A DNA stretch of 64,000 bases from Candidatus Shapirobacteria bacterium CG_4_10_14_0_8_um_filter_39_15 (GCA_002784465.1 PFLE01000004.1:8494-72493); one strand, 5' to 3'. Shown: positions 22,516 to 43,164, counted from the first letter of the stretch. Notes: generated by a model not told the origin, from the sequence alone. Made by a program: numbers and translations.

Positions 22516-22645
22516 ATTAAGGCAACAAAACACCTGGAGATAGGGTAAAAATACAAAGTTATCCAATTCTCCAGGTTTCTTTTTGTACAATTAGGTGTTG
22601 CAAATTATACCCCGATCGTGGTAATAATAGTAATAGATAAAGAAA

Positions 22646-23386
22646 ATGGCAAAGAATTTAAGAATTAGAGACTTTGTTCTTTTAGGATTAGCGATCGCTG
22701 GTGATACTTTTAGTGAATTTACTCAATCGCCTTCAATAAAACTTGGAAAAATCAAAGGTACTCTTCCTCCTAATTATGGTGTTACCAATTTCACCTCGGC
22801 AGTTTCTAAAATGCTCAAAACCGGTCAGATTGAAAAAATTATTAAAAAAGGTGAACCATATTTAAGATTGACTAATAATGGCAAAAAAATTTTAATCAGG
22901 GATTTCCCGTTGTTTAAATTGAGAAATCAGAAATGGAATGGTAAATGGAGGTTGGTATTTTATGATATTCCGGAAAAAATGAGAACGAAAAGGGAGTATT
23001 TACAGACAAAATTAAAAGAATTGGGTTTTGGCATGATTCAGGAAAGCGTTTATTTAAGTCCTTTTGATCTGGCGGAAGATTTAGAAGAATTTATTATCAG
23101 TCAAGGATTGCAGGATTATGTTTTTATTCACGTTGGAAAACAAATCATAGCAGGTGAAATAAAATCGTTGGTTGAAAAGCTTTGGAAAATCGAGAGCTTG
23201 GACAAGAGATACGAAGAAATTTTACTAAAGATTAAATCCAGGAAGGAACAAAACGAGATTTTCAAAGAATACGAAGAAATTTTAAAAGACGATCCCTGTT
23301 TACCTCTGGATTTGTTACCGAATAACTGGGTAGGGGAAAGAGTGAGGAAAGAAATGGGGTTACTTTTTAAACCACGATCGGGGTAA
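22646..23386 (+). CDS. PaaX-like winged-helix regulator, paralog 2
   Basis: Has a wHTH, the core KWNGKWRLVFYDIPEKMRTKREYLQTKLKELGFGMIQESVYLSPFD, and the C-terminal motif DDPCLPLDLLPNNWVGE. It is bracketed by 25-bp direct repeats at 22610-22634 and 23372-23396. Confidence 0.7.
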   Translation: MAKNLRIRDFVLLGLAIAGDTFSEFTQSPSIKLGKIKGTLPPNYGVTNFTSAVSKMLKTGQIEKIIKKGEPYLRLTNNGKKILIRDFPLFKLRNQKWNGKWRLVFYDIPEKMRTKREYLQTKLKELGFGMIQESVYLSPFDLAEDLEEFIISQGLQDYVFIHVGKQIIAGEIKSLVEKLWKIESLDKRYEEILLKIKSRKEQNEIFKEYEEILKDDPCLPLDLLPNNWVGERVRKEMGLLFKPRSG

Positions 23387-23435
23387 AATTAGTAATATTG
23401 TCTTTTTAAAAAATTAATTGGTATAATTATTATTA

Positions 23436-24662
23436 ATGCGTTATTCACAACTTTTTGGTAAAACTTTAAGGCAAGTTCCTAAAGAAGCGGAAGCAATTTC
23501 TCACCAATTACTAACCCGCGGCGGATTTATTGATAGGCAACTTACCGCCGGAGTTTATTCACTTCTTCCTCTCGGCTGGCGGGTCTATAAGAAAATTGAA
23601 AATATTATTCGGGAGGAAATGAATGCTATTGGCGGTCAAGAATTATTTTTGCCGGCGTTACAACCAAAAGAACTTTGGCTGCGTTCTAATCGCTGGGACA
23701 ATATGGATCCGCCTTTGTTTAAGTTTAAAGACCGACACGAAAAGGAATTAACAATTGCGCCTACCCACGAAGAAGTGATTACCGATTTGGCCAGTCGGAT
23801 GATTAATTCCTATCGCGATTTGCCATTGGCAATTTACCAAATTCAAAATAAATTTCGTAATGAAATGCGGGTTAATGGCGGGCTATTGCGAGTTCGGGAA
23901 TTTATGATGAAGGATTTGTACTCTTTCCACAGTTCGGTTGAAGATCTTGATCAATATTATCTGGAAGTGATTGACGCTTACAAAAATATTTTCAGCCGTT
24001 GCGGATTTCATGCCAAAATTGTCGAGTCCAGTTCGGGAACAATCGGGGGAGATCAATCAAACGAATTTCAAATGATTTGCGAAACCGGCGAGGATACGAT
24101 CGTTTGCTGCAAAACCTGCGATTGGGCGGCCAATGTGGAAAAAAGCAATCCGGAGCGGTGTCCGAAATGCGGTTCGGATATCGAAAGAGTTCATTCAATT
24201 GAAAACGGTCACGCCTTTAAATTGGGAACAAAATATGCGGAAAGTATGGGCGCATTTTTTACCGACGAATCAGGACACAGAAAACCTTTAATAATGGGTT
24301 GTTACGGAATCGGTTTGGGACGATTAATGGCGACGGTGGTCGAAGAATATCACGACGAAAAAGGAATTCTTTGGCCTCAAAATATTGCTCCGTATTTAGT
24401 TGATTTGGTTGATTTGGGTTTGAAAGAACGCGGGGGAGAAATCTACAATACTTTAACTCGTTTTGGCGCTGAAGTATTATGGGATGATCGGGATGTCACT
24501 GCCGGTAATAAATTTGCCGATGCTGATTTAATCGGTTTACCAATCAGATTGGTAGTTTCGGAAAAATCCGGAGACTTGGTCGAAATAAAAAGACGCGATG
24601 AACAACAAACAGAACTCCTTGATATTGAACAAATAGTTACCCGCCTGCAAGCGATGAAATGA
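23436..24662 (+). CDS. proS: Prolyl-tRNA synthetase (compact form without the INS editing domain)
   Basis: Class II aaRS motifs and a ProRS N-terminus (MRYSQLFGKTLRQVPKEAEAISHQLL); the C-terminal anticodon-binding domain is present. Confidence 0.85.
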   Translation: MRYSQLFGKTLRQVPKEAEAISHQLLTRGGFIDRQLTAGVYSLLPLGWRVYKKIENIIREEMNAIGGQELFLPALQPKELWLRSNRWDNMDPPLFKFKDRHEKELTIAPTHEEVITDLASRMINSYRDLPLAIYQIQNKFRNEMRVNGGLLRVREFMMKDLYSFHSSVEDLDQYYLEVIDAYKNIFSRCGFHAKIVESSSGTIGGDQSNEFQMICETGEDTIVCCKTCDWAANVEKSNPERCPKCGSDIERVHSIENGHAFKLGTKYAESMGAFFTDESGHRKPLIMGCYGIGLGRLMATVVEEYHDEKGILWPQNIAPYLVDLVDLGLKERGGEIYNTLTRFGAEVLWDDRDVTAGNKFADADLIGLPIRLVVSEKSGDLVEIKRRDEQQTELLDIEQIVTRLQAMK

Positions 24663-25675
24663 AAAAGAAAAAGATTGTGGTTATCGGCGGCGGATCCGGA
24701 ACTTACCAGGTCCTTCTGGGTTTAAAAAAATTTCCTTTAGATCTAACGGCGGTGGTCACGATGTCCGATTCCGGCGGGTCTTCGGGACGATTAAGGAAAG
24801 ATTTGGGAATTCTGCCTCCGGGTGATGTCCGGCGGGCGCTTTTGGCTTTGTCTAACCTTCATATTAAGAAAAACACTTTAAAAAAACTTTTTGATTTTCG
24901 TTTTAATAACGGCGAATTGGCCGGTCATTCCATTGGTAATTTATTACTGGCCGCTTTAACGCAAATTACCGGCCGGCCGGATTTAGCCATTTCCGAAGCC
25001 CAAAAAATCTTGGAAGTTTCCGGGCAAGTTTTGCCGGTGACGGTTGACAACACGGATTTGGTTGCCCGATTAGAGGACGGAACCATTATTAGGGGCGAAC
25101 ACGATATTGACGTTCGGGAGATCAAGCCGGATATTCCGATTGCCGAAGTTTATCTTTCACCAAATGCAAAAGTTTTTCCCGGGGCGCAAAAGGCAATCTG
25201 CCAAGCAGACTTAATTGTTTTAGGTCCGGGGGATTTATACACTTCAATCATTCCCAATTTATTGGTAACGGGTGTTAGCGAAGCAATTAACAAGTCAAAA
25301 TCAAAACTGGTTTATGTGTGTAATTTAATGACTAAGCACGGAGAGACAGATAATTTTACCACTACTGATTTTGTCCGCGAAATCAAAAAATATTTAAAAT
25401 TAGACAAAAAAATTCTGGATTATTTGGTTGTCAATGAGCAAATAAAATTGCCGGTGTCGGTTTCTTCCTGGTATAAAAAATATCATTCGGTACCGGTTAA
25501 AATCGAGCCGGATAATTTGGAAGGAACAAAATTAATTAAAGGTTCTTTTGTCCAGCCGGGAAAATTAATCAGACATGACCCGGCCAAGTTAGCCAAGACG
25601 ATTATGAAAATAATAAAAGATGAACAGTTAATCAGCAAAACAGGGAAAGTATATCGGAGAATGGAAGATCAGTAA
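24659..25675 (+). CDS. YvcK / CofD-family (UPF0052) gluconeogenesis factor-like protein
   Basis: N-terminal GGGSGT motif (VVIGGGSGTYQVL ... MSDSGGSSGRLR) typical of the CofD/YvcK family. Confidence 0.75.
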   Translation: MKKKKIVVIGGGSGTYQVLLGLKKFPLDLTAVVTMSDSGGSSGRLRKDLGILPPGDVRRALLALSNLHIKKNTLKKLFDFRFNNGELAGHSIGNLLLAALTQITGRPDLAISEAQKILEVSGQVLPVTVDNTDLVARLEDGTIIRGEHDIDVREIKPDIPIAEVYLSPNAKVFPGAQKAICQADLIVLGPGDLYTSIIPNLLVTGVSEAINKSKSKLVYVCNLMTKHGETDNFTTTDFVREIKKYLKLDKKILDYLVVNEQIKLPVSVSSWYKKYHSVPVKIEPDNLEGTKLIKGSFVQPGKLIRHDPAKLAKTIMKIIKDEQLISKTGKVYRRMEDQ

Positions 25676-25724
25676 ACAGGAAACTAATCTCTAATCTCTG
25701 TTCTCTTATCCAGATTATACTGAT

Positions 25725-26591
25725 TTGCTGATATTCTATTCTATGGTAAAACTAATTGTTACCCATATAAATCCTGATCTAGATGCCTTATCCAGTATTT
25801 GGTTGATTAAGCGTTTTTTTCCGACCTGGGAAAAGGCTGATATGCAATTTGTTCCGGCGGGAAAAACTTTTCGGGGTGCACCTCCGGATGACGATCAAGA
25901 AATTATTCATGTTGATACCGGTTTTGGTAAATACGACCATCACCAAACCGCTAAATTTACCTGCGCGGCGGAATTGGTTTACAAGGAAGTAAAAAAAAGA
26001 CAAAAATTATCGGAAGACAACCAAAAAGCTTTGGAAAGATTTATCAAAGTTAATGTGGAATTGGATTCTGGTCGGGATATTAGTTGGGAAGATGCTCAAA
26101 ATGATCGATACGAATTTATGGTAAGTAATTTTATGGCTAGCATTAAGTTTTCCCAAGAAAAAAAAGATGAAGAAAAAGTCAATTATTTTTTACCGATTAT
26201 TGATGCTATTTTTCAAACAATAAAAAATAAAATTAAGGCAGAAAACGAAATTAAAAAAGGAAAAGAATTTGAAACTCTCTGGGGAAAGGGGATTGGAATG
26301 GAAACCGGTTTGGATGATGTTTTAACAGTTGGAGAGAAAATGGGCTATTCTTTGGTTGTCAAAAAAAATCCCAAGGATGGTCATGTCAGAATTTTTGGGC
26401 GTTGGGACAAAAAAATAGATTTAACCAAAGCTTTTGGAAAATTTCAGAAAAAAGATCCCATGGCCTCTTGGTATCTTCACCCAAGTAAGTGTTTGCTTTT
26501 AAACGGTTCCCGTTCAGATCCGGACATGGTTCCCACAAAACTTTCTTTGGAAGAAATTATTAAAATTGTGGGAAAGAAAAAACCGTCCTAA
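25725..26591 (+). CDS. DHH-family phosphoesterase
   Basis: DHH motifs (HINPDLDAL; VDTGFGKYDHHQ). Confidence 0.65.
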   Translation: MLIFYSMVKLIVTHINPDLDALSSIWLIKRFFPTWEKADMQFVPAGKTFRGAPPDDDQEIIHVDTGFGKYDHHQTAKFTCAAELVYKEVKKRQKLSEDNQKALERFIKVNVELDSGRDISWEDAQNDRYEFMVSNFMASIKFSQEKKDEEKVNYFLPIIDAIFQTIKNKIKAENEIKKGKEFETLWGKGIGMETGLDDVLTVGEKMGYSLVVKKNPKDGHVRIFGRWDKKIDLTKAFGKFQKKDPMASWYLHPSKCLLLNGSRSDPDMVPTKLSLEEIIKIVGKKKPS

Positions 26592-26619
26592 CGGTGGTTT
26601 GTTAGAACGGTTTAGTAGA

Positions 26620-27021
26620 TCAATCAAAACATCTTGAATTAAGATCATTGGTTGAACCGGTAATTCTCTGGAGCATCGGCGGATAGAACTGCTGACCAAC
26701 CGAAAAGGCCAGAGCTCGGAGCTGAAATTCCAGAGTGGTTGCCCAGTCCTGCTCGTCATGATCAAGGGTGAACAGTTCTGTGCTGATGGCATCTATCTTT
26801 CTGGCAACATTGCACAGATAGCGCCTTTTGTTTTCGGTTAATACGCGGGCATAATTCCGAATGTCCGCAGTAGCTCTTACAATTGAATCCCAGTTGTTAG
26901 GATCCATCTGGATAACAACATCCTCTTCAATGACTTTGAATCGGAATTCAATCAAACCAACGGCCGGGATTTGGTTCGGGGCTGCAATCGCTGCCCTCAA
27001 CAGACTCGGATTTACGTTCAT
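26620..27021 (-). CDS. Hypothetical protein (opposite strand to neighbours; visibly higher GC)
   Basis: 133 aa ORF with no recognisable motif. Its codon usage is richer in GCC/GGC than its neighbours. Confidence 0.35.
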   Translation of the reverse strand: MNVNPSLLRAAIAAPNQIPAVGLIEFRFKVIEEDVVIQMDPNNWDSIVRATADIRNYARVLTENKRRYLCNVARKIDAISTELFTLDHDEQDWATTLEFQLRALAFSVGQQFYPPMLQRITGSTNDLNSRCFD

Positions 27022-27132
27022 CTCCTGCCTCCTTTTGTTGATAAGTTAATCTTGCAACCGAATTCCTTGATTCTGGGTGATATTATAAGCCTCTGAACTT
27101 CCAAAAGCAAACCAAAATTTGTATGATATAAT

Positions 27133-27489
27133 ATGTCTATGGAAAACTGTGTTTTTTGTAAAATTATTGCGGGAGAGATGCCGGCAAAATTTGTTTATCA
27201 GGATGATTTGATAGTTGCTTTTCCAGATATCAAACCTTCGGCGCCGGTGCACATTTTAATTGTTCCCAAGAAACATACGGAATCTTTGAAAACCACCAGT
27301 GAGGAAGATCAGGTTTTGCTGGGAAAAATGTTGTTAATCGCCGGAAAGATTGCTAAAGACCTGGGAATTTCTGAATCCGGATTCAAAGTTGTAATCAATA
27401 ATGGACCGGACGCCGGACAATTAGTAAAACATTTGCATTTTCATTTACTTGGCGGATGGGCCAAGAACGAAGGGCGGGTGACTATTTAA
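27133..27489 (+). CDS. HIT-family (histidine triad) protein
   Basis: HxHxHxx motif (HLHFHLLGG). Confidence 0.85.
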   Translation: MSMENCVFCKIIAGEMPAKFVYQDDLIVAFPDIKPSAPVHILIVPKKHTESLKTTSEEDQVLLGKMLLIAGKIAKDLGISESGFKVVINNGPDAGQLVKHLHFHLLGGWAKNEGRVTI

Positions 27490-27492
27490 TTT

Positions 27493-27681
27493 ATGGCAAC
27501 CATTGTTAAGAAAAAACCAGGTCAAACCGACGATCAGTTAATTGCCCAATTTAAGAAAAAAGTTCTCTATGAAGAAATTATCGAAGAAGTGAGGGAAAGA
27601 GAATTCTATACCAAACCTTCCCGAAAAAGATATGAACGGGAAAGGGCGAATAAAAACAGAAAACCCTCTAGGTACTATTGA
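27493..27681 (+). CDS. rpsU: 30S ribosomal protein S21
   Basis: 62 aa basic protein (KPGQTDDQLIAQFKKKV ... RKRYERERANKNRKPS). Confidence 0.8.
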   Translation: MATIVKKKPGQTDDQLIAQFKKKVLYEEIIEEVREREFYTKPSRKRYERERANKNRKPSRYY

Positions 27682-27778
27682 TGGGTTAGGTTATTGGGTT
27701 AGGGTGAGGCAGTTGGTATGGTCATAAGGTAAGGTTAATAGGAATTTTCCACCTTACCATAACCATTTCCCAAACTAA

Positions 27779-28261
27779 TTGCTTAACCCTTACCTTGGCC
27801 AGAATAAATACAATATGCTACAAGAGCAACTCAAAACTGATCTAATAATTGCTATGAAAGCGAAAGACCCGGAAAGAGTTTCGACTTTACGGTTTTTGCT
27901 TTCGGCGATAAATAATAAACAGATTGAATTACAGCGGGATTTAACGGATGAGGATGTGGTAGGGGTAATTGGTCACCAAATTAAAGAAAGGAAAGAATCA
28001 ATTGAAGCGTTTACCGCCGGTAACCGTCAGGACTTGGTTGATAAAGAAAAACACGAAATGGAAATTTTGTCCGGCTATATGCCGGAACAGATGCCGGAAA
28101 GGGAACTGGAACAAGTTGTCAACCAAGTAATTAAAGAAACAGGAGCATCAAGCCCAGCTGATTTTGGAAAAGTAATGGGAATGGTGATGGCAAGAGTTAA
28201 GGGAAAAGCGGATGGGAATAAAGTAGGAGGAATTGTTAAGAAACAACTAAAGTCATTCTGA
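27779..28261 (+). CDS. GatB/YqeY domain protein
   Basis: YqeY-like sequence (LKTDLIIAMKAKDPERVSTLRFLLSAI ...). The stop codon lies inside a hairpin repeat. Confidence 0.7.
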   Translation: MLNPYLGQNKYNMLQEQLKTDLIIAMKAKDPERVSTLRFLLSAINNKQIELQRDLTDEDVVGVIGHQIKERKESIEAFTAGNRQDLVDKEKHEMEILSGYMPEQMPERELEQVVNQVIKETGASSPADFGKVMGMVMARVKGKADGNKVGGIVKKQLKSF

Positions 28262-28330
28262 GCCAGCAGGCGAAGAATCTAGCGAAGCGTGCGGCCTGCG
28301 GCCTAGATCCTTCACTTTATTCAGGATGAC
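28252..28330. repeat. Hairpin repeat R, copy 6
   Basis: GTCATTCTGAGCcagcagGCGAAGAATCTAG ... CCTAGATCCTTC ... TCAGGATGAC. It supplies the stop codon of the GatB/YqeY gene. Confidence 0.85.
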
Positions 28331-28353
28331 ATTTTTCTTATTGACAACTCTAC

Positions 28354-28725
28354 ATGATAAGCGTTTTAATATCTTCAGAGTCCCGATACCGGATTGATCG
28401 CCAGAAAATTAAAAAAGGTATTGAGGATTTCCTCGGGCAGGTAGGAATGAATGAAGTTGAAGTCAGTGTGGCAGTGGTCGGCGGCCGGAAAATCCGGTCT
28501 CTGAATAAAACCTACCGTCAGCTTGACGAGTCAACCGATGTTCTTTCCTTTCCTCAAGAAGGTTCCCGAGACCCGGATGGAATTTTAAGATTGGGTGATA
28601 TTCTGGTTTGTTATCCGCAAGCAATTGAACAGGCGGTTGAGGAAGATAAAATGGTGGATGAGAAGATTAATGAATTAGTGGAGCATGGATTAAGACATTT
28701 GTTGGGAATTCACCACCCTGAATAA
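28354..28725 (+). CDS. ybeY: rRNA maturation endoribonuclease YbeY
   Basis: C-terminal HxxxHxxGxxH-type motif (VEHGLRHLLGIHH). Confidence 0.7.
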   Translation: MISVLISSESRYRIDRQKIKKGIEDFLGQVGMNEVEVSVAVVGGRKIRSLNKTYRQLDESTDVLSFPQEGSRDPDGILRLGDILVCYPQAIEQAVEEDKMVDEKINELVEHGLRHLLGIHHPE

Positions 28726-28737
28726 TTTGAAATCCCT

Positions 28738-28798
28738 GTCATCCTGAGCAAAGCGAAGGATCTTCTCAAGAAGATTCCTCGACTGCGTCTCGGAATGA
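28738..28798. repeat. Hairpin repeat R, copy 7
   Basis: GTCATCCTGAGCaaaGCGAAGGATCTTCTcaaGAAGATTCCTCGactgcgtCTCGGAATGAC, between ybeY and dnaX. Confidence 0.8.
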
Positions 28799-28811
28799 CT
28801 ATTTTAAAAAC

Positions 28812-32418: not shown

Positions 32419-32550
32419 TCGATTCCTCCTTTTTGGAACTTATGGTAACGAGCGAATTACGGTAGGAGAATATTACCAGAATTGAATAGGAAAATCAATT
32501 ATTATAAGGTATTGCATATTTATATGCTGGAGCGTTAGAATATGTAATAT

Positions 32551-33285: not shown

Positions 33286-33720
33286 TTATTGCATATTTAT
33301 ATGCTGGAGCGTGAGATTATGTAATATTGAAGAATAAAAACGAGGTGGTGGTTTCTCGAATTGGTATTGCAATCGAGGCCGTTCCGCCTTTCTAAATCAT
33401 TCTTGTTTGCTGCGGCGCCTGGCTCGAAGGAGGTCACAAATCTTGAAGTACTCGTGAAAGGTCCAAATCAACACACATGTGGGTTTGTTTCGTCGGTGCG
33501 GTAACCACAAAATGAATAGAACATGATAGAAAAGGTTTAAGCAGATTGAGAATCCAGATTCTCCAGATCATGGGAAGTTCTTTCTCTGTTTCCAAAATGA
33601 CTAACGACCCATCGCCCCAGGAAGAAATGAAACTTACCTTCTTCCCGAGAGCTTCAAGGTATCGGTCGAGCTTGGGTGAAGTAACCCCTACACCTTAATC
33701 GTATTGATCATCTTTCCTCC

Positions 33721-33936
33721 TTATGGATCGAATGGAGCTAGACCTAGAAAAAGCAGAAGAATACTCACCAAAAGGAGAGTCACGCCTGGGCTAGAGATCA
33801 TTTCTCCTTTATTGTCAAACCAAATTCTCCACAATCCTAGTTTTTCCACAAACAACAGGCGATAGAGAGCGATTACCCAAAAGATAGCCGCACCAACCAG
33901 ATATGGTGTGGAACTATCCCAAAATTCCCAATTCAT
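33721..33936 (-). CDS. Hypothetical small membrane protein
   Basis: 71 aa with two TM helices. Confidence 0.3.
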   Translation of the reverse strand: MNWEFWDSSTPYLVGAAIFWVIALYRLLFVEKLGLWRIWFDNKGEMISSPGVTLLLVSILLLFLGLAPFDP

Positions 33937-34025
33937 ACTTCCTCCTTGTATGTTAAGGTACTAAGGTTCTGGAGCAGTTTTATTGCAGGCATCCAGATTT
34001 TATCACAATTTGGTATAATTTATTA

Positions 34026-34658
34026 ATGAATCTTCCTAGGCCAATCAGAAAATTGATTGAATCTTTTGAAAAATTACCGGGGATTGGGCCGAAAAGCGCA
34101 GCCAGGCTGACTTTCTACCTGCTTCATGTGCCTCAAGAGCAACTGGATGAATTTGCCAATTCATTGACCGGGTTAAAAAAGAATACGGTTTTATGTTCCA
34201 CCTGTTTTAATGTTTCCGAAGCTGATCCTTGTCCAATATGTTCTGATTCTTCCCGTGATCAAAGTATTATTTGTGTGGTGGAACAACCCCTGGATGTTTT
34301 GGCTATCGAGAAAACAGGTCGGTATAAAGGGTTATATCATGTGTTACATGGCGTTATTTCCCCGCTGGATAATATTGGCCCTGATGAATTATATATAAAA
34401 CAGTTGTTGGATCGACTGACAAGGTCTAACCTTGTCAACGAAGTGATCCTGGCAATGAACCCAAATATGGAAGGGGAAGCGACCTCGATGTACCTTGCCA
34501 AAAAGGTAAAAGGGCACTTACAGGGTAAACAAGAAGGCGAGAGAGCAGGAGGGATAAAAATTACTAGGTTGGGACAGGGGTTGCCGATAGGAGGGGATTT
34601 GGAGTATGCTGATGAAGTGACACTTACTCGCGCTTTAGAGGGAAGGCGAGAGTATTAA
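34026..34658 (+). CDS. recR: Recombination protein RecR
   Basis: HhH N-terminus (LIESFEKLPGIGPKSAARL), a C4 zinc finger (CSTCFNVSEADPCPIC), and a Toprim domain. A REP-like palindrome is embedded in-frame. Confidence 0.9.
   Translation: MNLPRPIRKLIESFEKLPGIGPKSAARLTFYLLHVPQEQLDEFANSLTGLKKNTVLCSTCFNVSEADPCPICSDSSRDQSIICVVEQPLDVLAIEKTGRYKGLYHVLHGVISPLDNIGPDELYIKQLLDRLTRSNLVNEVILAMNPNMEGEATSMYLAKKVKGHLQGKQEGERAGGIKITRLGQGLPIGGDLEYADEVTLTRALEGRREY
34427..34447. repeat. REP-like palindrome TGACAAGGTCTAACCTTGTCA (copy 5; in-frame inside recR, encoding RLTRSNLV)
   Basis: Exact palindrome with a CTA centre, located inside a CDS. Confidence 0.9.
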
Positions 34659-34756: not shown

Positions 34757-35212
34757 ATGCCTAATCCATTACCACAAGCATTTCTAAATCAAATCAAACA
34801 AACCGCTCAAGATTCGGTTGAAACGGTTAAGCAAACCGTAGATAGCGGTATGGAACAAATTGGTTTACAAACTCGTCCGCTTTCGCAGGCAAAATTACTT
34901 TTTCCTGATCAATATGGTCAACCAACCGACGGTCTTCCTCAAAAAGAGAAAAACGACTTTAAACGGATGGTTGAAATTGGTCAGTTGCAAAAAAAGTTGA
35001 ATGCTGAAATTGCTAATGCGCAACAACAGAGAACAAAAGAATTACAACAAAGAAGAGAACCCCCAAAACAGACGCCGCAAATAAAGGAAATGACGCCGAC
35101 GATTGAAACCAGCGCGCCGCAAAAGGGAAAGCCTGGAGCCAATAATAGGAAAGTTGAAGCAGCTAAAAAACAGTCACAGCCGGAAACGTCGGGACAAAGA
35201 CAATCAGGTTAA
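34757..35212 (+). CDS. Hypothetical Q/K-rich low-complexity protein
   Basis: 151 aa, flanked by AT-rich inverted repeats. Confidence 0.35.
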   Translation: MPNPLPQAFLNQIKQTAQDSVETVKQTVDSGMEQIGLQTRPLSQAKLLFPDQYGQPTDGLPQKEKNDFKRMVEIGQLQKKLNAEIANAQQQRTKELQQRREPPKQTPQIKEMTPTIETSAPQKGKPGANNRKVEAAKKQSQPETSGQRQSG

Positions 35213-35324
35213 GTCAAAAATCAAAAGTTAAAAATTAAAATTTCAAGTTAAAATCCAAAAGTTTAGAACTCAATTTTGACTTTTGAATTGTATTTTTGAA
35301 TTTTGCCTTTTGCATTTTGAATTT

Positions 35325-36770
35325 ATGCTTAAACTATACAATACTTTATCGCATAAACTGGAAGAATTTAAACCAATAAATCCTGATCAAATAGGTGTCT
35401 ATTCTTGCGGCCCGACAGTTTATTGGAACCAGCATATTGGCAATATGTATGCTTTTGTTCAATGGGACGCGATGGTTCGGTTTCTGCGTTTTCTTGGTTG
35501 GAATGTTAAATGGGTAATGAATATTACGGATGTTGGTCATATGACTTCCGACGAAGATTCCGGTGAGGATAAAATGGAAAAAGGGGCCAAAAGAGAAGGA
35601 ATGACTCCTTGGGAAATCGCCGATAAATATTTAGGTCAATTTAAAGAGAGCATTGATTTATTGAACATTAAGCCAGATTTGTTGCCGAGAGCTACAGAAC
35701 ATATACAAGAGCAAATTGATTTGATTAAGAAAATAGAGGATCGAGGTTTTGCTTATAAAACAAAAACCGGATTGGTTTTCAATACGGCTAAATTTCCGGG
35801 TTACGCGGATTTTGCGCGATTAGATCTTTCAAAACAAGAAGCCGGTTCTCGGGTTGAAGTTGATCCGGAAAAGAAAAACCCCTGGGATTTTCTTCTTTGG
35901 GTAACAAATCAGCCTAATCATATTATGCTTTGGGATTCACCGTGGGGAAAAGGTTTTCCGGGTTGGCACATTGAATGCACGGCAATGTCAACGAAATATT
36001 TAGGAGAAACTTTTGACATTCATACCGGCGGCAAAGAGCATATTCCGGTTCACCATACTAATGAAGTGGCCCAAGGATTCGGCGCGTTTGGTCATCAAAC
36101 CGCTAATTTCTGGCTTCATAATGAGTGGTTGTCAATAAAGGGAGAAAAAGCAAGCAAGAGTTCGGGAAATTTTTATTTGGTAACTGACTTAGTGGAAAAA
36201 GGATATGATCCGTTAGCTTTTCGCTATTTGGTTTTAACTTCGCAATATCATTCCGGATTGGATTTTTCATTCGAGGCGTTAACCGGCGCGCAAACCACAT
36301 TATTCCGTTTGCGGGATCTGGTCGTTGGATGGAAACAGACCAAAGATGAAACCGGTTTTTCCCGGGAAACAATCGATAAGACGCAAGATTACCGCCAGAA
36401 ATTTATTGACGCGGTGAGCAACGATTTGAACTTTCCGGCCGGATTGGCCGTGGTTTGGGAAATGGCCAAATCGAATATCAATAGCGAAGACAAGCTGGAT
36501 TTAATACTGGAATTTGATAAAGTTATGGGATTAAGACTGGCAGAAGCAGGAAGCGAGAAGCGGGAAACATCGTCGGAAGTTGAGGAACTGGCGCAGAAAA
36601 GGGAAGTATTGAGAAAGCAAAAAAAATGGGAAACGGCGGATGAGGTACGGAAAGAGATTGAAAAGCTGGGTTACACGATAGAAGATAAAGCTGACGGATA
36701 CGTTTTAAAACATTGTCATTCCGAGCTTGTTTACACTGAGCGAAGCGAATGTGATTCAGAATCTATATAG
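35325..36770 (+). CDS. cysS: Cysteinyl-tRNA synthetase
   Basis: HIGH (HIGNMYA) and KMSKS (KSSGN variant KASKSSGN) motifs plus zinc-binding Cys residues. The C-terminal tail runs into a hairpin repeat. Confidence 0.88.
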
Positions 36771-36808
36771 ATTCCCGCTTTCCCTTACAGGGTAAACGCG
36801 GGAATGAC
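36715..36808. repeat. Hairpin repeat R, copy 8 (translated as the CysS C-terminal tail)
   Basis: GTCATTCCGAGC ... CCCTTACAGGGTAAACGCGGGAATGAC. Confidence 0.75.
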
Positions 36809-37472
36809 AGAGAAATCAAATTTATATATGCCTGACCGTCTACTTAAATTACTCCCTCAAATTTTAATTACAATAATTATTGTCAATGTTGTCTTTTTGG
36901 ATTTTTATTTAGGCGCCATAAGAAAGACAGAAACACCGGCGGAATCTTTGGTTCCGGTTGTTCAACCGACAGCGATACCGATTCAAGCAACCGAGAATTG
37001 TTCTTCCTGCCAGGCAATTGTTGAAAAAGAAGTTGCCAAACAAATTTCTTTGATTCCCAGTCCTACTTTGACTAAAACCCCAACGCCAACTTTAACTTTC
37101 GTAAATAGTCCAAAGGTTTTTTATATTCCTTTAGTTAACACCGGCTCGACTGTTTTAACCGAGTGGACTGATATTCCAGGGTCTGATTTTTATTTTAATT
37201 TGACTGATTATTCCGGCGCAAAAAGCGTTCAATGGGAAGCTTCTCTAAAGTCGGTAAACAGTCCGGCACGGGCAATGGTGAGATTGTATGATGTAACCAA
37301 TAAGAGAGGAGTAGATTATAGTGAATTACAAACGCAATCCATTACATATGCTTTGCTTCAATCTTCAGCAATCACCATTTGGAGGGGAAATAATCTATAT
37401 CGAGTCCAATTAAAAGCGGATAACGGTACCCAGGCGGATTTGGGAGCGGGAAGATTAAAGATAATATATTGA
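36804..37472 (+). CDS. Hypothetical membrane-anchored extracytoplasmic protein
   Basis: N-terminal TM helix, a Pro/Thr linker, and a beta-rich C-terminus. Confidence 0.35.
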   Translation: MTEKSNLYMPDRLLKLLPQILITIIIVNVVFLDFYLGAIRKTETPAESLVPVVQPTAIPIQATENCSSCQAIVEKEVAKQISLIPSPTLTKTPTPTLTFVNSPKVFYIPLVNTGSTVLTEWTDIPGSDFYFNLTDYSGAKSVQWEASLKSVNSPARAMVRLYDVTNKRGVDYSELQTQSITYALLQSSAITIWRGNNLYRVQLKADNGTQADLGAGRLKIIY

Positions 37473-37499
37473 TTTTTTTCTCTTGACAAATTATTATAA

Positions 37500-37796
37500 T
37501 TGTATTATTTTGGTAATATGAATAGAACAGTTTTGCAGATACCGGTTTCAAAAAATTTAAGAATAAAAGCCGAGGAAGCGGCATTAGCTTATGGTTTTTC
37601 TTCTTTACAGGAAGTTCTTAGGGTTTTTATGAATCGGTTGGCAAATAAATCGGTTGAGGTTTCTTTCCAGCCGATTATCAATCTTTCTACTGCGTCAGCC
37701 GCCAGACTAGAGAAGATGGACAAGGACTTTGAGGATAATAAAAATATTTTTATTGCCAAGGATTTAGATGATTTGAAAAGAAAACTTGCTAAATGA
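37500..37796 (+). CDS. Hypothetical protein, possible antitoxin partner of the downstream RelE/ParE remnant
   Basis: Approximately 93 aa (probable start at MNRTV) and 4-bp overlap with a degraded RelE/ParE-like ORF. Confidence 0.3.
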   Translation: MYYFGNMNRTVLQIPVSKNLRIKAEEAALAYGFSSLQEVLRVFMNRLANKSVEVSFQPIINLSTASAARLEKMDKDFEDNKNIFIAKDLDDLKRKLAK

Positions 37797-37993
37797 GAAT
37801 CGTTTATCATAAGCTATTTGAAAAGCACTTCAAAGAGAGGATTGCTTCGAATAAAAAGTTACGGGAGAAATTTTTTCAATGCTTGGATCTATTAATCGAA
37901 AATCCCCAAGATGAAATTTTAAGATGCCATCAACTTAGAGGATGAAACATTGTTTTTGTATGACATTGGTTCCCATGCCCAGGTATATTAACT
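37793..37993 (+). pseudogene. RelE/ParE-family toxin remnant (frameshifted and internally deleted)
   Basis: MRIVYHKLFEKHFKERIASNKKLREKFFQCLDLLIENPQDEILRCHQLRG then stops. A second frame continues DETLFLYDIGSHAQVY, which resembles a RelE/ParE C-terminus. Confidence 0.4.
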
Positions 37994-38029
37994 CTTGTTA
38001 TCTCTTGCTTCTTTTTGTATAATATTGCC

Positions 38030-38311
38030 ATGAGGAAATATGAATTGACCGTGATTTTGCCTGCTGATCTAGAAAAGGAAGATAACGAAAAACTACTGGG
38101 GAAAATAAAAAAAGCCATCGAAGACGGCAAGGGAAAAATTGAAAAAGCCGACGATTGGGGAAAGAAAGATTTTGCCTACGAAATTAAGAAATTAAAAGAA
38201 GGTAATTATTATTATTGGGAATTTTCGGTTGAACCTTCGCAATTATTCGATATTGATCGTAAAATAAAAGCAGAAGAAAAAATACTAAGATATCTTTTAG
38301 TTAAAGTCTAA
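38030..38311 (+). CDS. rpsF: 30S ribosomal protein S6
   Basis: S6-like sequence (MRKYELTVILPADLEKEDNEKLLGKIKKAIEDGKGKIEKADDWGKKDFAYEI) in the rpsF-ssb-rpsR order. Confidence 0.88.
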   Translation: MRKYELTVILPADLEKEDNEKLLGKIKKAIEDGKGKIEKADDWGKKDFAYEIKKLKEGNYYYWEFSVEPSQLFDIDRKIKAEEKILRYLLVKV

Positions 38312-38332
38312 GAAAACAATCTAAGCAAATAT

Positions 38333-38881
38333 ATGTCAACCAGATCGTTAAATAAAGTTCAATTAATCGGGAACATGACTCGGGATCCGGAATTGCGGTA
38401 TACGCCCCAAGGAACAGCTGTCTGTACTTTTGGATTAGCCACCAATCGGTCTTGGATAACCGATAACGGTGAGAAAAAAGAAGAAACCGAATTTCACAAG
38501 ATTGTCGTTTGGAATAAACTGGCCGAACTTTGTTCTCAATTGCTTTTTAAAGGCCGGAGGATTTATGTTGAAGGGCGATTGCAAACCCGATCGTGGACCG
38601 GTCAAGACGGAGTTGCTCATCAAACAACGGAAATTGTTATTTCTGATATGCTGATTCTGGATAATAAGCGGGCCGAAGGAGTTGGGGGAGCGGGGGCGGT
38701 TGTACCAGAAGCCGAAGAGGTTGTTGAACCTGTGGTAGCAGAATCGGTTGAGAAGCGAGAGGCGGGAAGCGAGAAAAAGACGGAAAAGGCCAAAAAAGAG
38801 GAAAAGCCCGAAAAATCGGAAGAACAACCTAAGGAAACAGAAGAAGGCGAAACTGTCAAAAAAGAAGACATTCCTTTTTGA
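38333..38881 (+). CDS. ssb: Single-stranded DNA-binding protein
   Basis: OB fold (VQLIGNMTRDPELRYTPQGTAVCTFGLATNRSW) and a long charged tail ending DIPF. Confidence 0.9.
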   Translation: MSTRSLNKVQLIGNMTRDPELRYTPQGTAVCTFGLATNRSWITDNGEKKEETEFHKIVVWNKLAELCSQLLFKGRRIYVEGRLQTRSWTGQDGVAHQTTEIVISDMLILDNKRAEGVGGAGAVVPEAEEVVEPVVAESVEKREAGSEKKTEKAKKEEKPEKSEEQPKETEEGETVKKEDIPF

Positions 38882-39126
38882 GATATATGATAAGACGAAA
38901 AACCATCAGACGTTTAAAATCAACCGAAAAATGTTATTTTTGCGTGGATAAATCTCTGCCTGATTATAAAAAGCCGGAAATTCTTGGTAAATTTATCAGC
39001 GATCGGGGAAAAATCCACAGCCGGAATCGGACCGGAATTTGTGCAAAGCATCAGAGAAAACTGGCGACCCAAATGAAACGAGCCCGCCACCTGGCATTTC
39101 TTCCGTTTATCACGCAAGTGCAATGA
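38878..39126 (+). CDS. rpsR: 30S ribosomal protein S18
   Basis: S18-like sequence (YFCVDKSLPDYKKPEILGKFISDRGKIHSRNRTGICAKHQRKLATQMKRARHLAFLPF). Confidence 0.88.
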   Translation: MRYMIRRKTIRRLKSTEKCYFCVDKSLPDYKKPEILGKFISDRGKIHSRNRTGICAKHQRKLATQMKRARHLAFLPFITQVQ

Positions 39127-39842
39127 ATTCAAATTTTCAGCCTGCCAACTTTAAGTTGAAAATTCCCATTTTTACGGGTGATAATATTTTAGTCAAGGTT
39201 GGGGAAAAAGTTAAACCCGAGCAACTTCTTTTTTCCGGTGACAGACAGGGTCCTTTGGTCGAAATCAACTTAGATGATAAAACATTAACCAGCCCTTTGG
39301 GTTCTAAAGTGGTTAAAGACCAGGTGATTGTCAAAACAAAATCGTTTTTAGGTGGAGGAAAAGAAATGAAAAGCCCATCCGACGGATTTCTGGAATCATT
39401 AACCGAAAGCGGAATATTAAAAATCAGAACCAAGGGTGAGCAGGAAAATTACCGTTGTCCGGCCGAAGGAAAAATTGAAGAAATCAGTGAGGCGATTTTA
39501 ATTGAATTCAAAGGTGTTAAGTTGGAAGCAGCTGACGGCTGGGGAAAGGGCAATTGGGGAATTTTGAAATTTCAAAAAGATATTTCGGTTGATGATCAGG
39601 GAGCAATTTTGGCGGTTCGGGAAAAACCGGATTTGGTTTTTTGTAATAAGGCTGAAGCCATTGAAGCCGGCGGTTTAATTTGTGGTAAAATAGCCGAAGG
39701 GCAAGGGAAAGATTTATCCTGTTTGATAATGGGTAGTGAAGAAGGCATAATTCCGGCAGAAATTTGGGAAGAATTGAAAAAATTTGAAGGCCAAAATGTC
39801 TATCTTGGCGGGAAAGAAAAAATTTTGTTTATTCCAAAATGA
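39123..39842 (+). CDS. Hypothetical protein (in the position where rplI often follows rpsR; not L9-like)
   Basis: Approximately 239 aa from MNSNFQ, with no recognisable motif. Confidence 0.3.
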   Translation: MNSNFQPANFKLKIPIFTGDNILVKVGEKVKPEQLLFSGDRQGPLVEINLDDKTLTSPLGSKVVKDQVIVKTKSFLGGGKEMKSPSDGFLESLTESGILKIRTKGEQENYRCPAEGKIEEISEAILIEFKGVKLEAADGWGKGNWGILKFQKDISVDDQGAILAVREKPDLVFCNKAEAIEAGGLICGKIAEGQGKDLSCLIMGSEEGIIPAEIWEELKKFEGQNVYLGGKEKILFIPK

Positions 39843-41083
39843 AAATTAAAATGTCCTTATCACAAATTAAGAAATTCATCATTTATTTAGCGGTTGTGGT
39901 TTTGGCAATTGGTTTTGGATATCGGTTGGGTCAATCCAAGGTTACGGTTTCGCTTAATTCCGGAAAATCTCTAATTAAAATTGATAGCAATCTTCCGGCG
40001 GATAAATCCAACATTGATTTTTCTTTATTTTGGCAGGTTTGGGATCGTTTGGAAGCAAATTATTTGCGGAAGGAAGGTCTAGACCCGCAAAAAATGATTT
40101 ATGGAGCAATTTCCGGCATGGCTTCCGCTTTAGGTGATCCATATACGGTTTTCTTGCCCCCGACAGAACAAAACTTATCAAAAGCCGATCTTGCCGGCAC
40201 TTTTGACGGCGTGGGGATTGAACTTGGTTATAAAGAGAGCAAGCTTGCGGTTGTTTCACCGCTTAAAGATTCGCCGGCGGAAAAAGCCGGCGTTAAGTCC
40301 GGTGATTTTATTGCTTGGATTAAAGATAGTCAGAAAAAAATTGATAAAACGACCCAAGGAATGACTTTGCCGGAGGCGGTTGAAATTATTCGGGGGGTTT
40401 CAGGATCTGAAGTAATTTTAACTTTGGTCCGGGATCAAGTCGAGAAACCTTTGGAAGTGACTTTAAAAAGAGCGCCGATTGTGGTTAAAAGCATTGAGTT
40501 AAGTTTTGATGATGATAAACAAATTGCCAAAATTAAGCTAATGCGTTTCGGCGAGCAAACCAATCGGGGGTGGGATTCAGAGGTGACGGCCATCTTAGGT
40601 CATAGTCCGCAAGTTAAGGGCATTGTTTTGGATTTAAGAAACAATCCGGGAGGATTTCTCCAGGGAGCAATTTATATTGCCAGCGAATTTATTGCTGATG
40701 GACCGGTGGTAAAGCAGGAAAATGCCGGTAATCGGGGAACTGATGTCTATAACGTTGATCGGAAAGGATTATTGACCAAAATACCCTTGGTGGTTCTTAT
40801 AAATGAAGGCTCTGCTTCTGCCTCGGAGATTTTATCAGGGGCCTTAAGAGAAAGGGTTAAAGCAAAATTAGTTGGTCAAAAATCGTTCGGCAAGGGAACG
40901 GTTCAGGAAGCGGAAGAATTTCCCGGCGGTTCTGGTTTACACATTACCATTGCCCGTTGGCTGCTGCCAAGCGGTAAATCAATTGACAAAGAAGGGATTA
41001 CTCCGGATTATTTAGTGGCGATGGACGATAAGGACTCAACGAAAGATCCGCAAATGGATAAAGCCATCGAATTATTAAGGTAA
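39839..41083 (+). CDS. ctpA: Carboxyl-terminal processing protease (S41) with PDZ domain
   Basis: N-terminal TM helix, a PDZ domain, and the S41 catalytic region (LDLRNNPGGFLQGAIYIASEF ... GSASASEI). Confidence 0.8.
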   Translation: MKIKMSLSQIKKFIIYLAVVVLAIGFGYRLGQSKVTVSLNSGKSLIKIDSNLPADKSNIDFSLFWQVWDRLEANYLRKEGLDPQKMIYGAISGMASALGDPYTVFLPPTEQNLSKADLAGTFDGVGIELGYKESKLAVVSPLKDSPAEKAGVKSGDFIAWIKDSQKKIDKTTQGMTLPEAVEIIRGVSGSEVILTLVRDQVEKPLEVTLKRAPIVVKSIELSFDDDKQIAKIKLMRFGEQTNRGWDSEVTAILGHSPQVKGIVLDLRNNPGGFLQGAIYIASEFIADGPVVKQENAGNRGTDVYNVDRKGLLTKIPLVVLINEGSASASEILSGALRERVKAKLVGQKSFGKGTVQEAEEFPGGSGLHITIARWLLPSGKSIDKEGITPDYLVAMDDKDSTKDPQMDKAIELLR

Positions 41084-41135
41084 TTCTCAGAATTAAGTAA
41101 TAAATTTTAATCATTGTCATCATAACAAACTAATT

Positions 41136-42317
41136 ATGAACAGGTTTAAAAGATTATTAACTATTTCAGCCTTGGTGATTGTTCTGGTTGTAGCGATTTT
41201 AGGCGGGGCAATTTCTGATCGGATTTTCGGTTATCGGGTTTTGGATCGGATTTTTCCGCGATCGAATTCCAGCAACTTATCTCAATTGCCATTTAGTCAA
41301 AAGGTTGTTAATGAAGAATCAGTGGTGATCGATGTGGTTGATAGAGTTTCTCCCAGCGTAGTTACCATTAATTTGAGTACAACTCAAACTACACCCGATC
41401 TCTCGCAATTTTTTGGTTTACCTTTTTCTTTTGGCTTTCCGCAAAATACTCAACCGCAGAATGTCACCCAAGACATTGCTACAGGATTTATTGTTTCAAA
41501 AGACGGTTTGATTGTTACCAATAAGCATGTGGTTTCGGATACGAGTGGAAAATATAAGGTCATTACTAAAGATAATAAATCCTATGATGTTCAAAAAATT
41601 TACCGCGATCCGGCCAATGACACCGCGATTTTAAAAATAAACCCTTCGATAAGCTCAGGGCAAGCGCTTATACCAGTGGAAATGGGGGATTCGTCAAAGT
41701 TGAAAGTTGGCCAGTTTGTAATTGCCATTGGAACAGCCTTGGGTGAGTTTCGCAATACGGTGACAACTGGAGTAGTTTCTGGTATTGGTCGTTCCATTAC
41801 CGCCGGATCTCCTTATCAAGGAACAGCCGAACAACTTGACAATGTAATTCAGACCGATGCGGCGATCAACCCAGGCAATTCCGGTGGTCCTTTGATTAAC
41901 TCTTCCGGCCAGGTGATTGGTGTTAATGCCGCGGTTTCCCAAGGCAGCCAAAATATTGGCTTTGCGCTCCCAATTAATTTAATAAAAGACTCGCTCAATA
42001 ATTTTAATAAAACTGGTCAATTCTCCCGACCTTTCTTGGGAATTCGTTACCAAATGATCAGTAAGGAAGTAGCGATAATGAATGAGGTTCCGGAGGGGTC
42101 TTATGTGATTGAAATTGTTTCCGGCTCACCTTCAGAAAAAGCCGGTTTAAAAAGAGGGGATATTATTACCAAAATGGATGGTCAGAAATTATCCGATACG
42201 GTAAGCATTGCTGATTTAATTAGCAAAAAGAAAGTTGGGGATACCGTAGAACTAAATATTTGGCGCAATAATCAGAACCAAACCGTTAAGGTTATTTTGG
42301 AAGAAGTAAGTCAATAA
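41136..42317 (+). CDS. HtrA/DegP-family serine protease with PDZ domain
   Basis: Catalytic triad context (TNKHVV; DTAILKI; GNSGGPLINSSGQVIGVN) plus a C-terminal PDZ domain. Confidence 0.85.
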   Translation: MNRFKRLLTISALVIVLVVAILGGAISDRIFGYRVLDRIFPRSNSSNLSQLPFSQKVVNEESVVIDVVDRVSPSVVTINLSTTQTTPDLSQFFGLPFSFGFPQNTQPQNVTQDIATGFIVSKDGLIVTNKHVVSDTSGKYKVITKDNKSYDVQKIYRDPANDTAILKINPSISSGQALIPVEMGDSSKLKVGQFVIAIGTALGEFRNTVTTGVVSGIGRSITAGSPYQGTAEQLDNVIQTDAAINPGNSGGPLINSSGQVIGVNAAVSQGSQNIGFALPINLIKDSLNNFNKTGQFSRPFLGIRYQMISKEVAIMNEVPEGSYVIEIVSGSPSEKAGLKRGDIITKMDGQKLSDTVSIADLISKKKVGDTVELNIWRNNQNQTVKVILEEVSQ

Positions 42318-42406
42318 TAACTTCCCAATCTTCAAGAAACTTTCTTACCAAAATTTAGGATATCCATAAAATTGTCATTGTTATTTAAATGTGATATGGT
42401 ATTTGT

Positions 42407-43066
42407 ATGGAAGACGAAAAAATAAGTGAACTGGCGGAAAAATTAAAAATCACTTTGGAGGAAGAGCAGAAAAAAGATTTTATAGATAAAACAAAAGAAA
42501 TTCTAAAATATCCTAAAGTTAAACTGGTTTTGGCCTTATTGGGTGTTGGTAGTGTCGTAGTGTTGGCCGTAGTTGCTCCCGGCGTTGGGTTGGCATTCAA
42601 AGGTGCTAGCAAAATTCTTGAGGACCAAAGCGATAAAGAATGGAAAAAATATAATCAGGGATTATTGCGTCGAACTCTTGATCGGCTTAATAAAAGAAAA
42701 ATGGTGGAATATGATCAGCAAGGGGACAAGGTGATTGTTAAATTAACCGAAGCGGGAAAGAAAATGATTCTTAAATATTCCCTTGATAATCTTGAGATTA
42801 AACGGCCGAAAATTTGGGATAAGCAATGGCGTTTGATTATTTATGATGTCCCTTATGGCAAAAGAAGGTGGGCTGATATTTTTGGGCGATGGCTGAAAAA
42901 TCTAGGGATGTATCGGATACAGAAAAGTGTTTTTCTTTACCCGTTTCCGTGTGATAATGAAGTTCAATTTCTAAGGGAATATTTAGGAATAGGGAAGCAT
43001 GTTTGGTTAATGAAAGTAACCAAGATGGAAAACGAATCGGTTCTTAAAGAATATTTTGGTCTGTAA
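42407..43066 (+). CDS. PaaX-like regulator, paralog 4 (with a predicted N-terminal TM helix)
   Basis: Core KIWDKQWRLIIYDVPYGKRRWADIFGRWLKNLGMYRIQKSVFLYPFP. It is bracketed by the direct repeat AATTTAGGATATCCAYRAAATTG. Confidence 0.6.
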   Translation: MEDEKISELAEKLKITLEEEQKKDFIDKTKEILKYPKVKLVLALLGVGSVVVLAVVAPGVGLAFKGASKILEDQSDKEWKKYNQGLLRRTLDRLNKRKMVEYDQQGDKVIVKLTEAGKKMILKYSLDNLEIKRPKIWDKQWRLIIYDVPYGKRRWADIFGRWLKNLGMYRIQKSVFLYPFPCDNEVQFLREYLGIGKHVWLMKVTKMENESVLKEYFGL

Positions 43067-43164
43067 ATTACGACAGAATTTAGGATATCCACGAAATTGG
43101 TAATGTAATAATTACAAAATATAAAAAAATAAAAACGGTTGGAAAAAAATTCTCTCTTAAATTT

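Follow-up and report, generated by a model that had tools for sequence, protein, structure and literature searches.

PaaX-like genes of a Candidatus Shapirobacteria genome lie between paired palindromic repeats that are probably their own operators

Recognisable transcription factors are considered scarce in bacteria of the Candidate Phyla Radiation (CPR). In the immunity region of lambdoid phages, the cI gene is located between the operator sets OL and OR, each immunity type has its own specificity, and looping between the flanking operators tightens autoregulation. The LacI operator O3, at the 3' end of lacI, can reportedly arrest RNA polymerase and so exert feedback on the production of the repressor. 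As for PaaX, the E. coli operator is TGATTC-N27-GAATCA, and canonical PaaX represses its own Px promoter through steric hindrance (PMC9493321). We analysed a stretch of 64,000 nucleotides from Candidatus Shapirobacteria bacterium CG_4_10_14_0_8_um_filter_39_15 (GCA_002784465.1 PFLE01000004.1:8494-72493), hereafter the window, which has a G+C content of ~39%, carries its genes predominantly on the + strand and encodes five PaaX-like paralogs (P1 to P5) detected with phmmer. P2 to P5 are each bracketed by a pair of repeats, and the same arrangement is found across the PaaX-like family. These repeats are probably the operators of the genes that they bracket: the upstream copy would serve autoregulation, and the downstream copy would be a second, promoter-dead site acting perhaps by looping or as a roadblock. 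We found no account of the bracket, or of a PaaX-like family in CPR regulation, in the searchable literature.

A first-pass annotation of the window had placed a direct repeat on either side of P2, P3 and P4, and we located each of the quoted sequences at most 1-2 nt from the positions given. The P2 repeat is 31 nt long (26/31 identical), its second copy covering the last five codons and the stop, and those of P3 and P4 measure 41 nt (39/41) and 23 nt (21/23). P5 had been described as devoid of such a repeat, which is wrong, as its flanks hold a pair that is 71% identical with a CGGCCG/GCGGCCGC core, and its ortholog (L016) has TTGACAAGCGGCCGCTA, with the same core on both sides. The two 'perfect palindromes' reported upstream of P5 (46847-46864 and 46877-46898) are interrupted by spacers of 4 and 6 nt, which makes them inverted repeats, and the TTGACA -35 box comes from the second. 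No flanking pair was detected for P1, whose intact positional ortholog (L014) does carry one. When 110 nt around the start were compared with 130 nt around the stop for 64 genes of the window, P3 ranked 1st, P4 4th and P2 5th; other top scorers were the gene of an IS200-like Y1 transposase, which has flanking hairpins, and one AT-rich-flanked gene (34757-35212). No third copy of any P2-P5 site was present within the window.

We then assessed the generality of the bracket. A scan with one genome per species returned 80 loci encoding relatives, mostly in Patescibacteria but also in Terrimicrobiaceae, one Omnitrophota genome and a few others, and the flank test was applied to 78 of them. A flank-repeat score of at least 15 was reached at 39/78 homologous loci against 3/248 neighbouring genes of the same loci (Fisher p=4e-25). 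In nearly all repeats the palindrome is centred on CGATCG, CGGCCG or CGGTCG, more rarely on GCCATGGC, CCTCGAGG, GCAGCTGC, GCATATGC or TGATCA, and its arms vary from locus to locus. Each locus (±3 kb) has exactly two copies of its site, except in the non-CPR Terrimicrobiaceae (L031, L033-L038 and L040), where a 34-46-nt palindrome (ACCAAAAATTTGGACGATCGTCCAAATTTTTGGT) occurs once upstream and one to three times downstream at a spacing of ~110 nt, the copy number differing between close relatives. The protein family is large: in a profile search of 50%-identity representatives, 5,158 clusters passed a threshold of E<=1e-10 and 458 passed one of E<=1e-30. No member was found in a viral-contig collection or a phage database.

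To describe the architecture of the sites, 37 non-redundant pairs were aligned on their centres. Symmetry within each copy and identity between the upstream and downstream copies were both high at positions k=1-6 from the centre and dipped at k=8-12 (64% paired); both peaked again at k=13-17 (80% paired; p=8e-7) and were at background beyond k=22. This profile, with its inner and outer peaks, argues that the unit is a bipartite palindrome of ~40 bp, in which a core, often CGRYCG, occupies the middle and is flanked at about ±13-17 by outer half-sites roughly three helical turns apart. The 41-nt repeat of P3 then makes up one site, ATTGCA-N26-TGTAAT around GCTG|GAGC, hence the conservation of the whole stretch, and it is there that the symmetry of the full site is centred rather than on the GCATATTTATATGC noticed in the first-pass annotation. 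Continuous symmetry in the window sites extends over 6-12 bp only. The sites resemble the E. coli PaaX operator, and a long bipartite inverted repeat of the PaaX type over the gene's own promoter is thus present at the sequence level. Half-site spacing by best-hexamer count suffered from a tie-breaking bias and was not used. Recognition-helix residues agreed with the core sequence at the subfamily level only, where the comparison is confounded by common ancestry.

The upstream copy overlaps the core of a predicted leaderless-type promoter. Its palindrome is most often centred 28-31 nt 5' of the ATG, with a -10 box 6-9 nt before that codon. A TANNNT box was found 4-10 nt before the ATG in 64% of the PaaX-like genes compared with 34% of their neighbours (p=3e-5), and only 7% of the PaaX-like genes have a Shine-Dalgarno sequence. 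Promoter-like layouts are seen in P3 (TTGCAT-18-TAGAAT-9-ATG), P5 (TTGACA-17-TATTGT-6-ATG, with CGGCCG within the spacer) and P4 (TTGTCA-17-TATGGT-6-ATG, with the palindrome immediately upstream). The position of the upstream copy over the -35 and -10 boxes, together with the behaviour of canonical PaaX, suggests self-repression. Elsewhere in the window, ProRS (prolyl-tRNA synthetase) and recR have TATAAT 6-8 nt before their ATG and no Shine-Dalgarno sequence (23397-23438 and 33990-34028), and small minus-strand open reading frames (ORFs) carry strong GGAGG sites. Genes of the leaderless type thus seem to coexist in this genome with genes led by a Shine-Dalgarno sequence.

The left edge of the downstream copy usually falls between -20 and +10 nt relative to the end of the stop codon. 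Of 21 downstream copies, only 2 have retained TANNNT at the corresponding offset. Both mismatches of the P3 pair hit the -10 box, changing TAGAAT to GAGATT downstream, and in P2 the -35 box TTGCAA has become TTACTT. The downstream copy is nevertheless present in at least nine independent loci with solid convergent neighbours, and that of P3 faces minus-strand ORFs. In L037, the most diverged Terrimicrobiaceae ortholog, the downstream palindromes stand out as conserved islands in scrambled intergenic DNA, as expected of elements under purifying selection. Conservation of the palindromes combined with loss of the -10 and -35 boxes indicates that the downstream copy is a predicted binding site that has been maintained but is not active as a promoter. 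T-tracts are lacking 3' of the downstream copies.

Comparison of orthologs argued in the same direction. Positional orthologs were found for P1 (order PBP-PaaX-dprA in L014, L044 and L008), P3 (PaaX-recR in L088 and L007) and P5 (L016), and these positions are stable at 55-67% protein identity; P2 has an ortholog at 87% identity (L087). The cores vary between orthologs but match within a cassette, both in the P3 group (GCTGGAGC, GTAACGGTCGTTAC and GACGATCGCTC) and in the P1 group (TGACGCGGTCGCAAC and TTCTCGGCCGAGAA), and the P5 orthologs behave likewise. According to the first-pass annotation the repeats are unrelated between paralogs, but the P2 and P3 sites align over their full length. We aligned nine P2-type and P3-type sites, including those of the P2, P3, L088 and L007 cassettes. 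The outer half-sites TTGC(A/T)T...GTAAT are common to all, each cassette has its own central ~14 nt, and copy-specific flanks are shared, ATATTG following every downstream copy. From this pattern we infer that the bracket predates the split between P2 and P3, that the copies have not undergone wholesale homogenisation and that the core was altered in step in both copies, as co-evolution with a binding protein predicts. The gap between P3 and recR is ~700 nt (33330-34025), compared with 85-212 nt in L007 and L088, and contains, on the minus strand, an ORF for a membrane-like product of 71 aa (33721-33936), preceded by a strong Shine-Dalgarno sequence; Rfam gave no match there.

The first-pass annotation had suggested looking in relatives for sites lacking a cassette, and such loci were seen for P2. 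None of 80 ProRS loci from related metagenomes has a PaaX-like gene, and in most of them no other gene separates the M50 peptidase gene from ProRS. The P2 cassette with its 158-aa ORF is therefore, on the evidence of these relatives, a lineage-specific insertion at the M50-ProRS junction. The recR-linked orthologs are 58% identical to P2 and 56-61% identical to P3, and the P2 cassette is most likely a duplicate of the recR-linked cassette that carried both sites along. Other inserts at this junction are unrelated genes and not PaaX-like, and insertion here appears to be recurrent. At nine loci from other CPR genomes (L103, L117, L118, L125, L130, L132, L135, L139 and L142) the junction holds a different conserved ORF of ~120 aa, with the motif MKI..P..LNP..V.RRAGYG...YPRFH.Y...INLHLDQKQASYEG, or other genes. 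In the window the M50 peptidase gene is separated from the P2 cassette by an insertion sequence with an rve integrase (20825-21955, minus strand), which is absent from L087.

Table 1. Positions in the window of the PaaX-like genes and of the predicted sites on either side of them.
Feature	Coordinates	Strand	Description
P1	3874-4548	+	PaaX-like, degraded; homology stops near residue 170; without flanking pair
P2	22646-23386	+	PaaX-like, 246 aa; predicted winged helix, Cas2-like central domain, PaaX_C tail
P3	32551-33285	+	PaaX-like, 244 aa; positional orthologs upstream of recR in L088 and L007
P4	42407-43066	+	short PaaX-like, 219 aa; without PaaX_C
P5	46928-47707	+	PaaX-like, 259 aa
P2 upstream site	22598-22636	+	repeat copy 22605-22635; TTGCAA 22598-22603 (-35-like, left half-site); core CCCCGATCGTGG; CGATCG 22613-22618; right half-site GTAAT 22630-22634; ATG at 22646; identical in ortholog L087
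P2 downstream site	23360-23398	+	repeat copy 23367-23397; TTACTT (degraded -35); core CCACGATCGGGG; CGATCG 23375-23380; GTAAT 23392-23396; CCACGGTCGGGG in ortholog L087
P3 upstream site	32510-32550	+	repeat copy 32510-32550; TTGCAT 32512-32517; centre GCTGGAGC 32526-32533; -10 box TAGAAT 32536-32541; GTAAT 32544-32548; abuts ATG 32551
P3 downstream site	33288-33328	+	repeat copy 33288-33328; between P3 and minus-strand ORFs
P4 upstream site	42352-42374	+	repeat copy 42352-42374; AATTTAGGATATCCATAAAATTG; GGATATCC at 42358-42365
P4 downstream site	43077-43099	+	repeat copy 43077-43099; AATTTAGGATATCCACGAAATTG
P5 upstream site	46881-46927	+	repeat copy 46889-46923; TTGACA 46893-46898; CGGCCG 46901-46906 in spacer; -10 box TATTGT 46916-46921; ATG 46928
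P5 downstream site	47680-47719	+	repeat copy 47685-47719; 40-nt quasi-palindrome around GCGGCCGC; covers last codons and stop

We examined the relationship of the proteins to PaaX and Cas2. All five paralogs matched PF20803 (PaaX_M, Cas2-like) above the curated Pfam cut-off (52-80 bits against 24; E=1.9e-22 for P2). PF08223 (PaaX_C) scored above its cut-off of 22 in P2 and P3 (25.6 and 27.6 bits) and just under it in P5 (21.7), and had no Pfam match in P4 or P1. PF07848, the N-terminal winged helix, gave a sub-threshold match in P1 only (20 bits against 24.8). Sequence matches of P2 in the PDB were E. coli PaaX (8a39, E=1e-7) and Rv0674 (3kfw), and both were also the top Foldseek matches of its AlphaFold2 model (mean pLDDT, the predicted local distance difference test, of 80.6), 8a39 over the whole chain (E=1e-9). 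In the model, residues 29-75 form three helices followed by a beta hairpin (pLDDT 65-79). Cas2 structures matched the central domain of the P2 model alone, and PF09827 (Cas2) scored 21-24 bits, at or under its cut-off of 23.8, with half of the profile covered. The NCBI label of P2 is 'CRISPR-associated endonuclease Cas2', yet these are proteins of 219-259 aa with three domains, at variance with the stand-alone format of ~90-110 aa. Tandem Repeats Finder detected no CRISPR array in the window, and cas1 was absent from the annotated genes (~50 of roughly 75 window ORFs). There were no paa genes among the Pfam-annotated genes of the window or in the annotated homologous loci, and we therefore regard the proteins as PaaX-fold regulators and not as regulators of phenylacetate metabolism; on this view database labels need correcting, since neither Cas2 nor phenylacetate regulator is an apt name. 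The N-terminal helix of P4 at residues 38-56 (Kyte-Doolittle 2.67) is strongly hydrophobic and transmembrane-like and precedes the predicted winged helix; a few relatives (L071, L054, L077 and L080) look alike, and all of these may be membrane-anchored.

In the operator model, a PaaX-like protein would bind the ~40-bp bipartite palindrome as a dimer, its Cas2-like domain dimerizing as that of canonical PaaX does. The outer half-sites would be common to a subfamily, and the central core would be specific to each paralog. Bound to the upstream copy, the protein would repress its own transcription, as suggested by the position of that copy and by canonical PaaX. The downstream copy would be a second operator that most likely loops cooperatively with the upstream one or halts RNA polymerase as it reaches the gene's 3' end. 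This would tighten the feedback and insulate the cassette from neighbouring transcription, the weakest step of the model. The bracket would be inherited as a unit when a cassette is duplicated or moved, and both cores would then co-evolve with the protein.

One reading in the first-pass annotation was that each regulator has a private operator on either side of its gene. The operator part of that idea is favoured by the bipartite palindromes, the promoter overlap, the promoter-dead downstream copy and the covariation of the cores; the word 'private' has to be qualified because the P2 and P3 subfamily has its outer half-sites in common, so that cross-binding is possible. Other observations also weigh against the operator model, which is drawn from sequence throughout. 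No clear pair is present at about a third of the homologous loci. Within the window and the ±3-kb loci, sites were detected only beside their own gene, which leaves no obvious regulatory output, and looping would need a suitable oligomeric state of the protein. Some loci (L073, L055 and L043) differ in the outer arms while each copy is still a perfect palindrome, and double differences between copies were of the within-copy type, which preserves the palindrome, in 27 cases against 9 of the cross type (about p=0.002). Such arm differences are not predicted by sequence-specific binding of one protein; they hint that, on top of protein binding, hairpins or cruciforms form or quasi-palindromes are corrected by template switching.

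We weighed several other explanations. That the repeats are insertion junctions without present function, such as att-like sites, a long target duplication or a duplication scar, is unlikely in our estimation, although the P2 cassette does interrupt an adjacency seen in most of the related ProRS loci and the repeats are direct and include non-palindromic sequence. The P2 pair belongs to a chimeric minority, in that CCcCGATCGtGG and CCaCGATCGgGG are reverse complements, a pattern kept in L087, and L040 has lost ~110 nt between two downstream copies, so that copies can recombine. Chimeric, att-like sites would fit P2, yet across loci palindrome-preserving double changes outnumber chimeric ones as given above, and this candidate was rejected. 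Joint change of the cores alongside persistent copy-specific flanks and promoter-killing changes excludes a recent scar or wholesale conversion; downstream copies persist as conserved islands in diverged orthologs, the positions of the P1, P3 and P5 orthologs are stable, each cassette is single-copy and lacks a recombinase or transposase partner, and the family is absent from the viral and phage collections searched. Of the marks of a mobile element, neither multiple copies nor a recombinase or transposase was seen, and presence/absence variation was seen for the P2 cassette relative to distant relatives. The first-pass suggestion of cassette insertion or duplication junctions is thus not supported for the repeats, even though the P2 cassette as a whole is a lineage-specific insertion. 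A related idea, to which we give very little weight, is that the unit is a semi-autonomous, self-bracketing cassette whose Cas2-like domain, with its conserved Asp, nicks, handles as hairpins or recombines the CGRYCG cores, enabling duplication or relocation; if so, the unit would be a surviving relative of the repeat-flanked arrangement that supposedly gave CRISPR adaptation modules their Cas2.

The palindromes could also work as nucleic-acid hairpins, be they RNA stem-loops at mRNA ends, terminators, processing sites or DNA cruciforms. Some of them are perfect over 40-54 nt (L073 and Terrimicrobiaceae), and the excess of palindrome-preserving double differences points this way, but the upstream copy sits on the -35 and -10 boxes of a leaderless-type promoter and would stay untranscribed. 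The bipartite profile with its dip at k=8-12 suits two half-sites and a core better than a continuous stem, the symmetry of the window sites is short and the downstream copies have no T-tract, all of which makes this reading rather improbable. G:T-type mismatches numbered 59 against 41 of the A:C type, without clear excess, and this weak asymmetry together with the location of the upstream copy in a promoter led us to reject an RNA hairpin. We likewise doubt that the downstream copy serves as a regulated promoter for whichever gene comes next (such as ProRS, recR or dprA), with the PaaX-like protein as a local regulator. It is true that this next gene is co-directional at about half of the loci, that the orders PaaX-dprA (P1 type) and PaaX-recR (P3 type) are conserved, and that the downstream copy of L044 retains TATAAT ahead of dprA. 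As a general rule, an operator of the next gene is ruled out by the convergent neighbours and by the loss of the -10 box in 19/21 downstream copies; moreover, in the window both ProRS and recR are preceded by a separate TATAAT box 3' of the site, and minus-strand ORFs lie opposite the downstream copy of P3. A last possibility is that the repeats match by chance or are no more than the AT-rich sequence typical of promoters or terminators: the genome is AT-rich and the unrelated gene at 34757-35212 has similar flanks, but the flank test, the lack of further copies in the window and the specific GC-rich palindromic cores leave this explanation practically no room. The operator model remains the reading that we favour.

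Several other elements of the window were recorded. Identical hairpins of 21 nt, TGACAAGGT-NNN-ACCTTGTCA, stand on both sides of the Y1 transposase gene (gene at 7777-8502 on the minus strand, whole unit at 7767-8537). More copies of this hairpin occur near 12843 and 34425, one intergenic and one within the coding sequence of recR, where it encodes LTRSNLV in a variable stretch, and a variant is found inside the transposase gene itself. The ensemble looks like a REP/RAYT-type system (repetitive extragenic palindromes with their associated tyrosine transposase). The DnaB helicase gene (49759-52332) contains an intein, which includes a homing-endonuclease domain of the LAGLIDADG type. Short intergenic arrays, in which units of 7-8 nt are repeated in tandem, lie just 5' of genes (4545-4586, 5677-5755, 19104-19190, 35272-35324, 48713-48744 and 53688-53726), with units that include ATTGCTAT, ATAACAAT, GTAAAACA, CTTACTGA, AATTTTG, ATTTTGC and ATTGTTAT, and TTAGATTGTTATAAT is duplicated before dprA. 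The stretch 46440-46840 is ORF-poor and higher in G+C, adjoins tRNA-His (minus strand) and includes a stem of 22 bp (46624-46673); possibly it specifies a structured RNA that has yet to be described. Apart from tRNA-His, the ORF-poor stretches beside P3 and P5 had no match in Rfam. A release-factor gene (43560-44258, minus strand; PCRF and RF-1 domains) comes directly after ribosomal protein L31 and encodes only 232 aa, the usual N-terminal part being missing.

If the operator model is right, this is a large PaaX-fold family whose genomes display each probable binding site twice beside the gene. The family is almost unstudied, and the brackets amount to a ready-made catalogue of protein and DNA-site pairs. 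Dozens of natural protein/operator pairs would make a recognition code readable and supply candidate orthogonal repressors, and the arrangement offers a testable model of insulated autoregulation in compact leaderless-type genomes.

Among known systems, the proteins come close to the canonical PaaX repressors of phenylacetate catabolism in E. coli and Pseudomonas (8a39 and 3l09), with which they share the succession of a predicted winged helix, a Cas2-like domain and a helical C-terminal domain and, presumably, a long bipartite inverted-repeat operator and repression of their own promoter, which occurs by steric hindrance in canonical PaaX. Canonical PaaX has ~310 aa compared with 160-270 aa for the PaaX-like proteins here, and identity is only about 20%. 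The latter retain a YDIP motif of the Cas2 type, are encoded by many paralogs per small genome without paa genes nearby, and have predicted operators with an extra central core and a second, promoter-dead copy at the 3' end of the gene. We know of no description of such a second copy for canonical PaaX.

In that respect the locus is reminiscent of other repressor genes. As with lambdoid cI, a repressor gene would lie between its own operator sets, but OL and OR have active outward promoters and large regulons, whereas here the two flanks are direct repeats, of which the downstream one lacks a promoter, and no family member turned up in the phage collections searched. Like O3 of LacI, the downstream copy overlaps the coding end of the gene for its presumed repressor; O3 is a single, much-studied case, however, rather than a family-wide rule, and it loops to the lac promoter and not to that of lacI. 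Insertion sequences are also tightly bracketed genes in many 'private' versions, with one site on the promoter and the other at the stop codon, both presumably bound by the element's own product. Here, in contrast, there are no identical elements in multiple copies, no transposase fold and no target duplications, orthologous positions are stable, and the non-palindromic parts of the repeats are direct, not inverted. Finally, the cassette shares with a Cas2/CRISPR unit the ferredoxin fold with a conserved Asp and a gene placed between palindromic direct repeats of CRISPR-repeat length, but the protein is of the three-domain PaaX type, the 'spacer' is a gene of 0.5-0.8 kb, and no array is present in the window.

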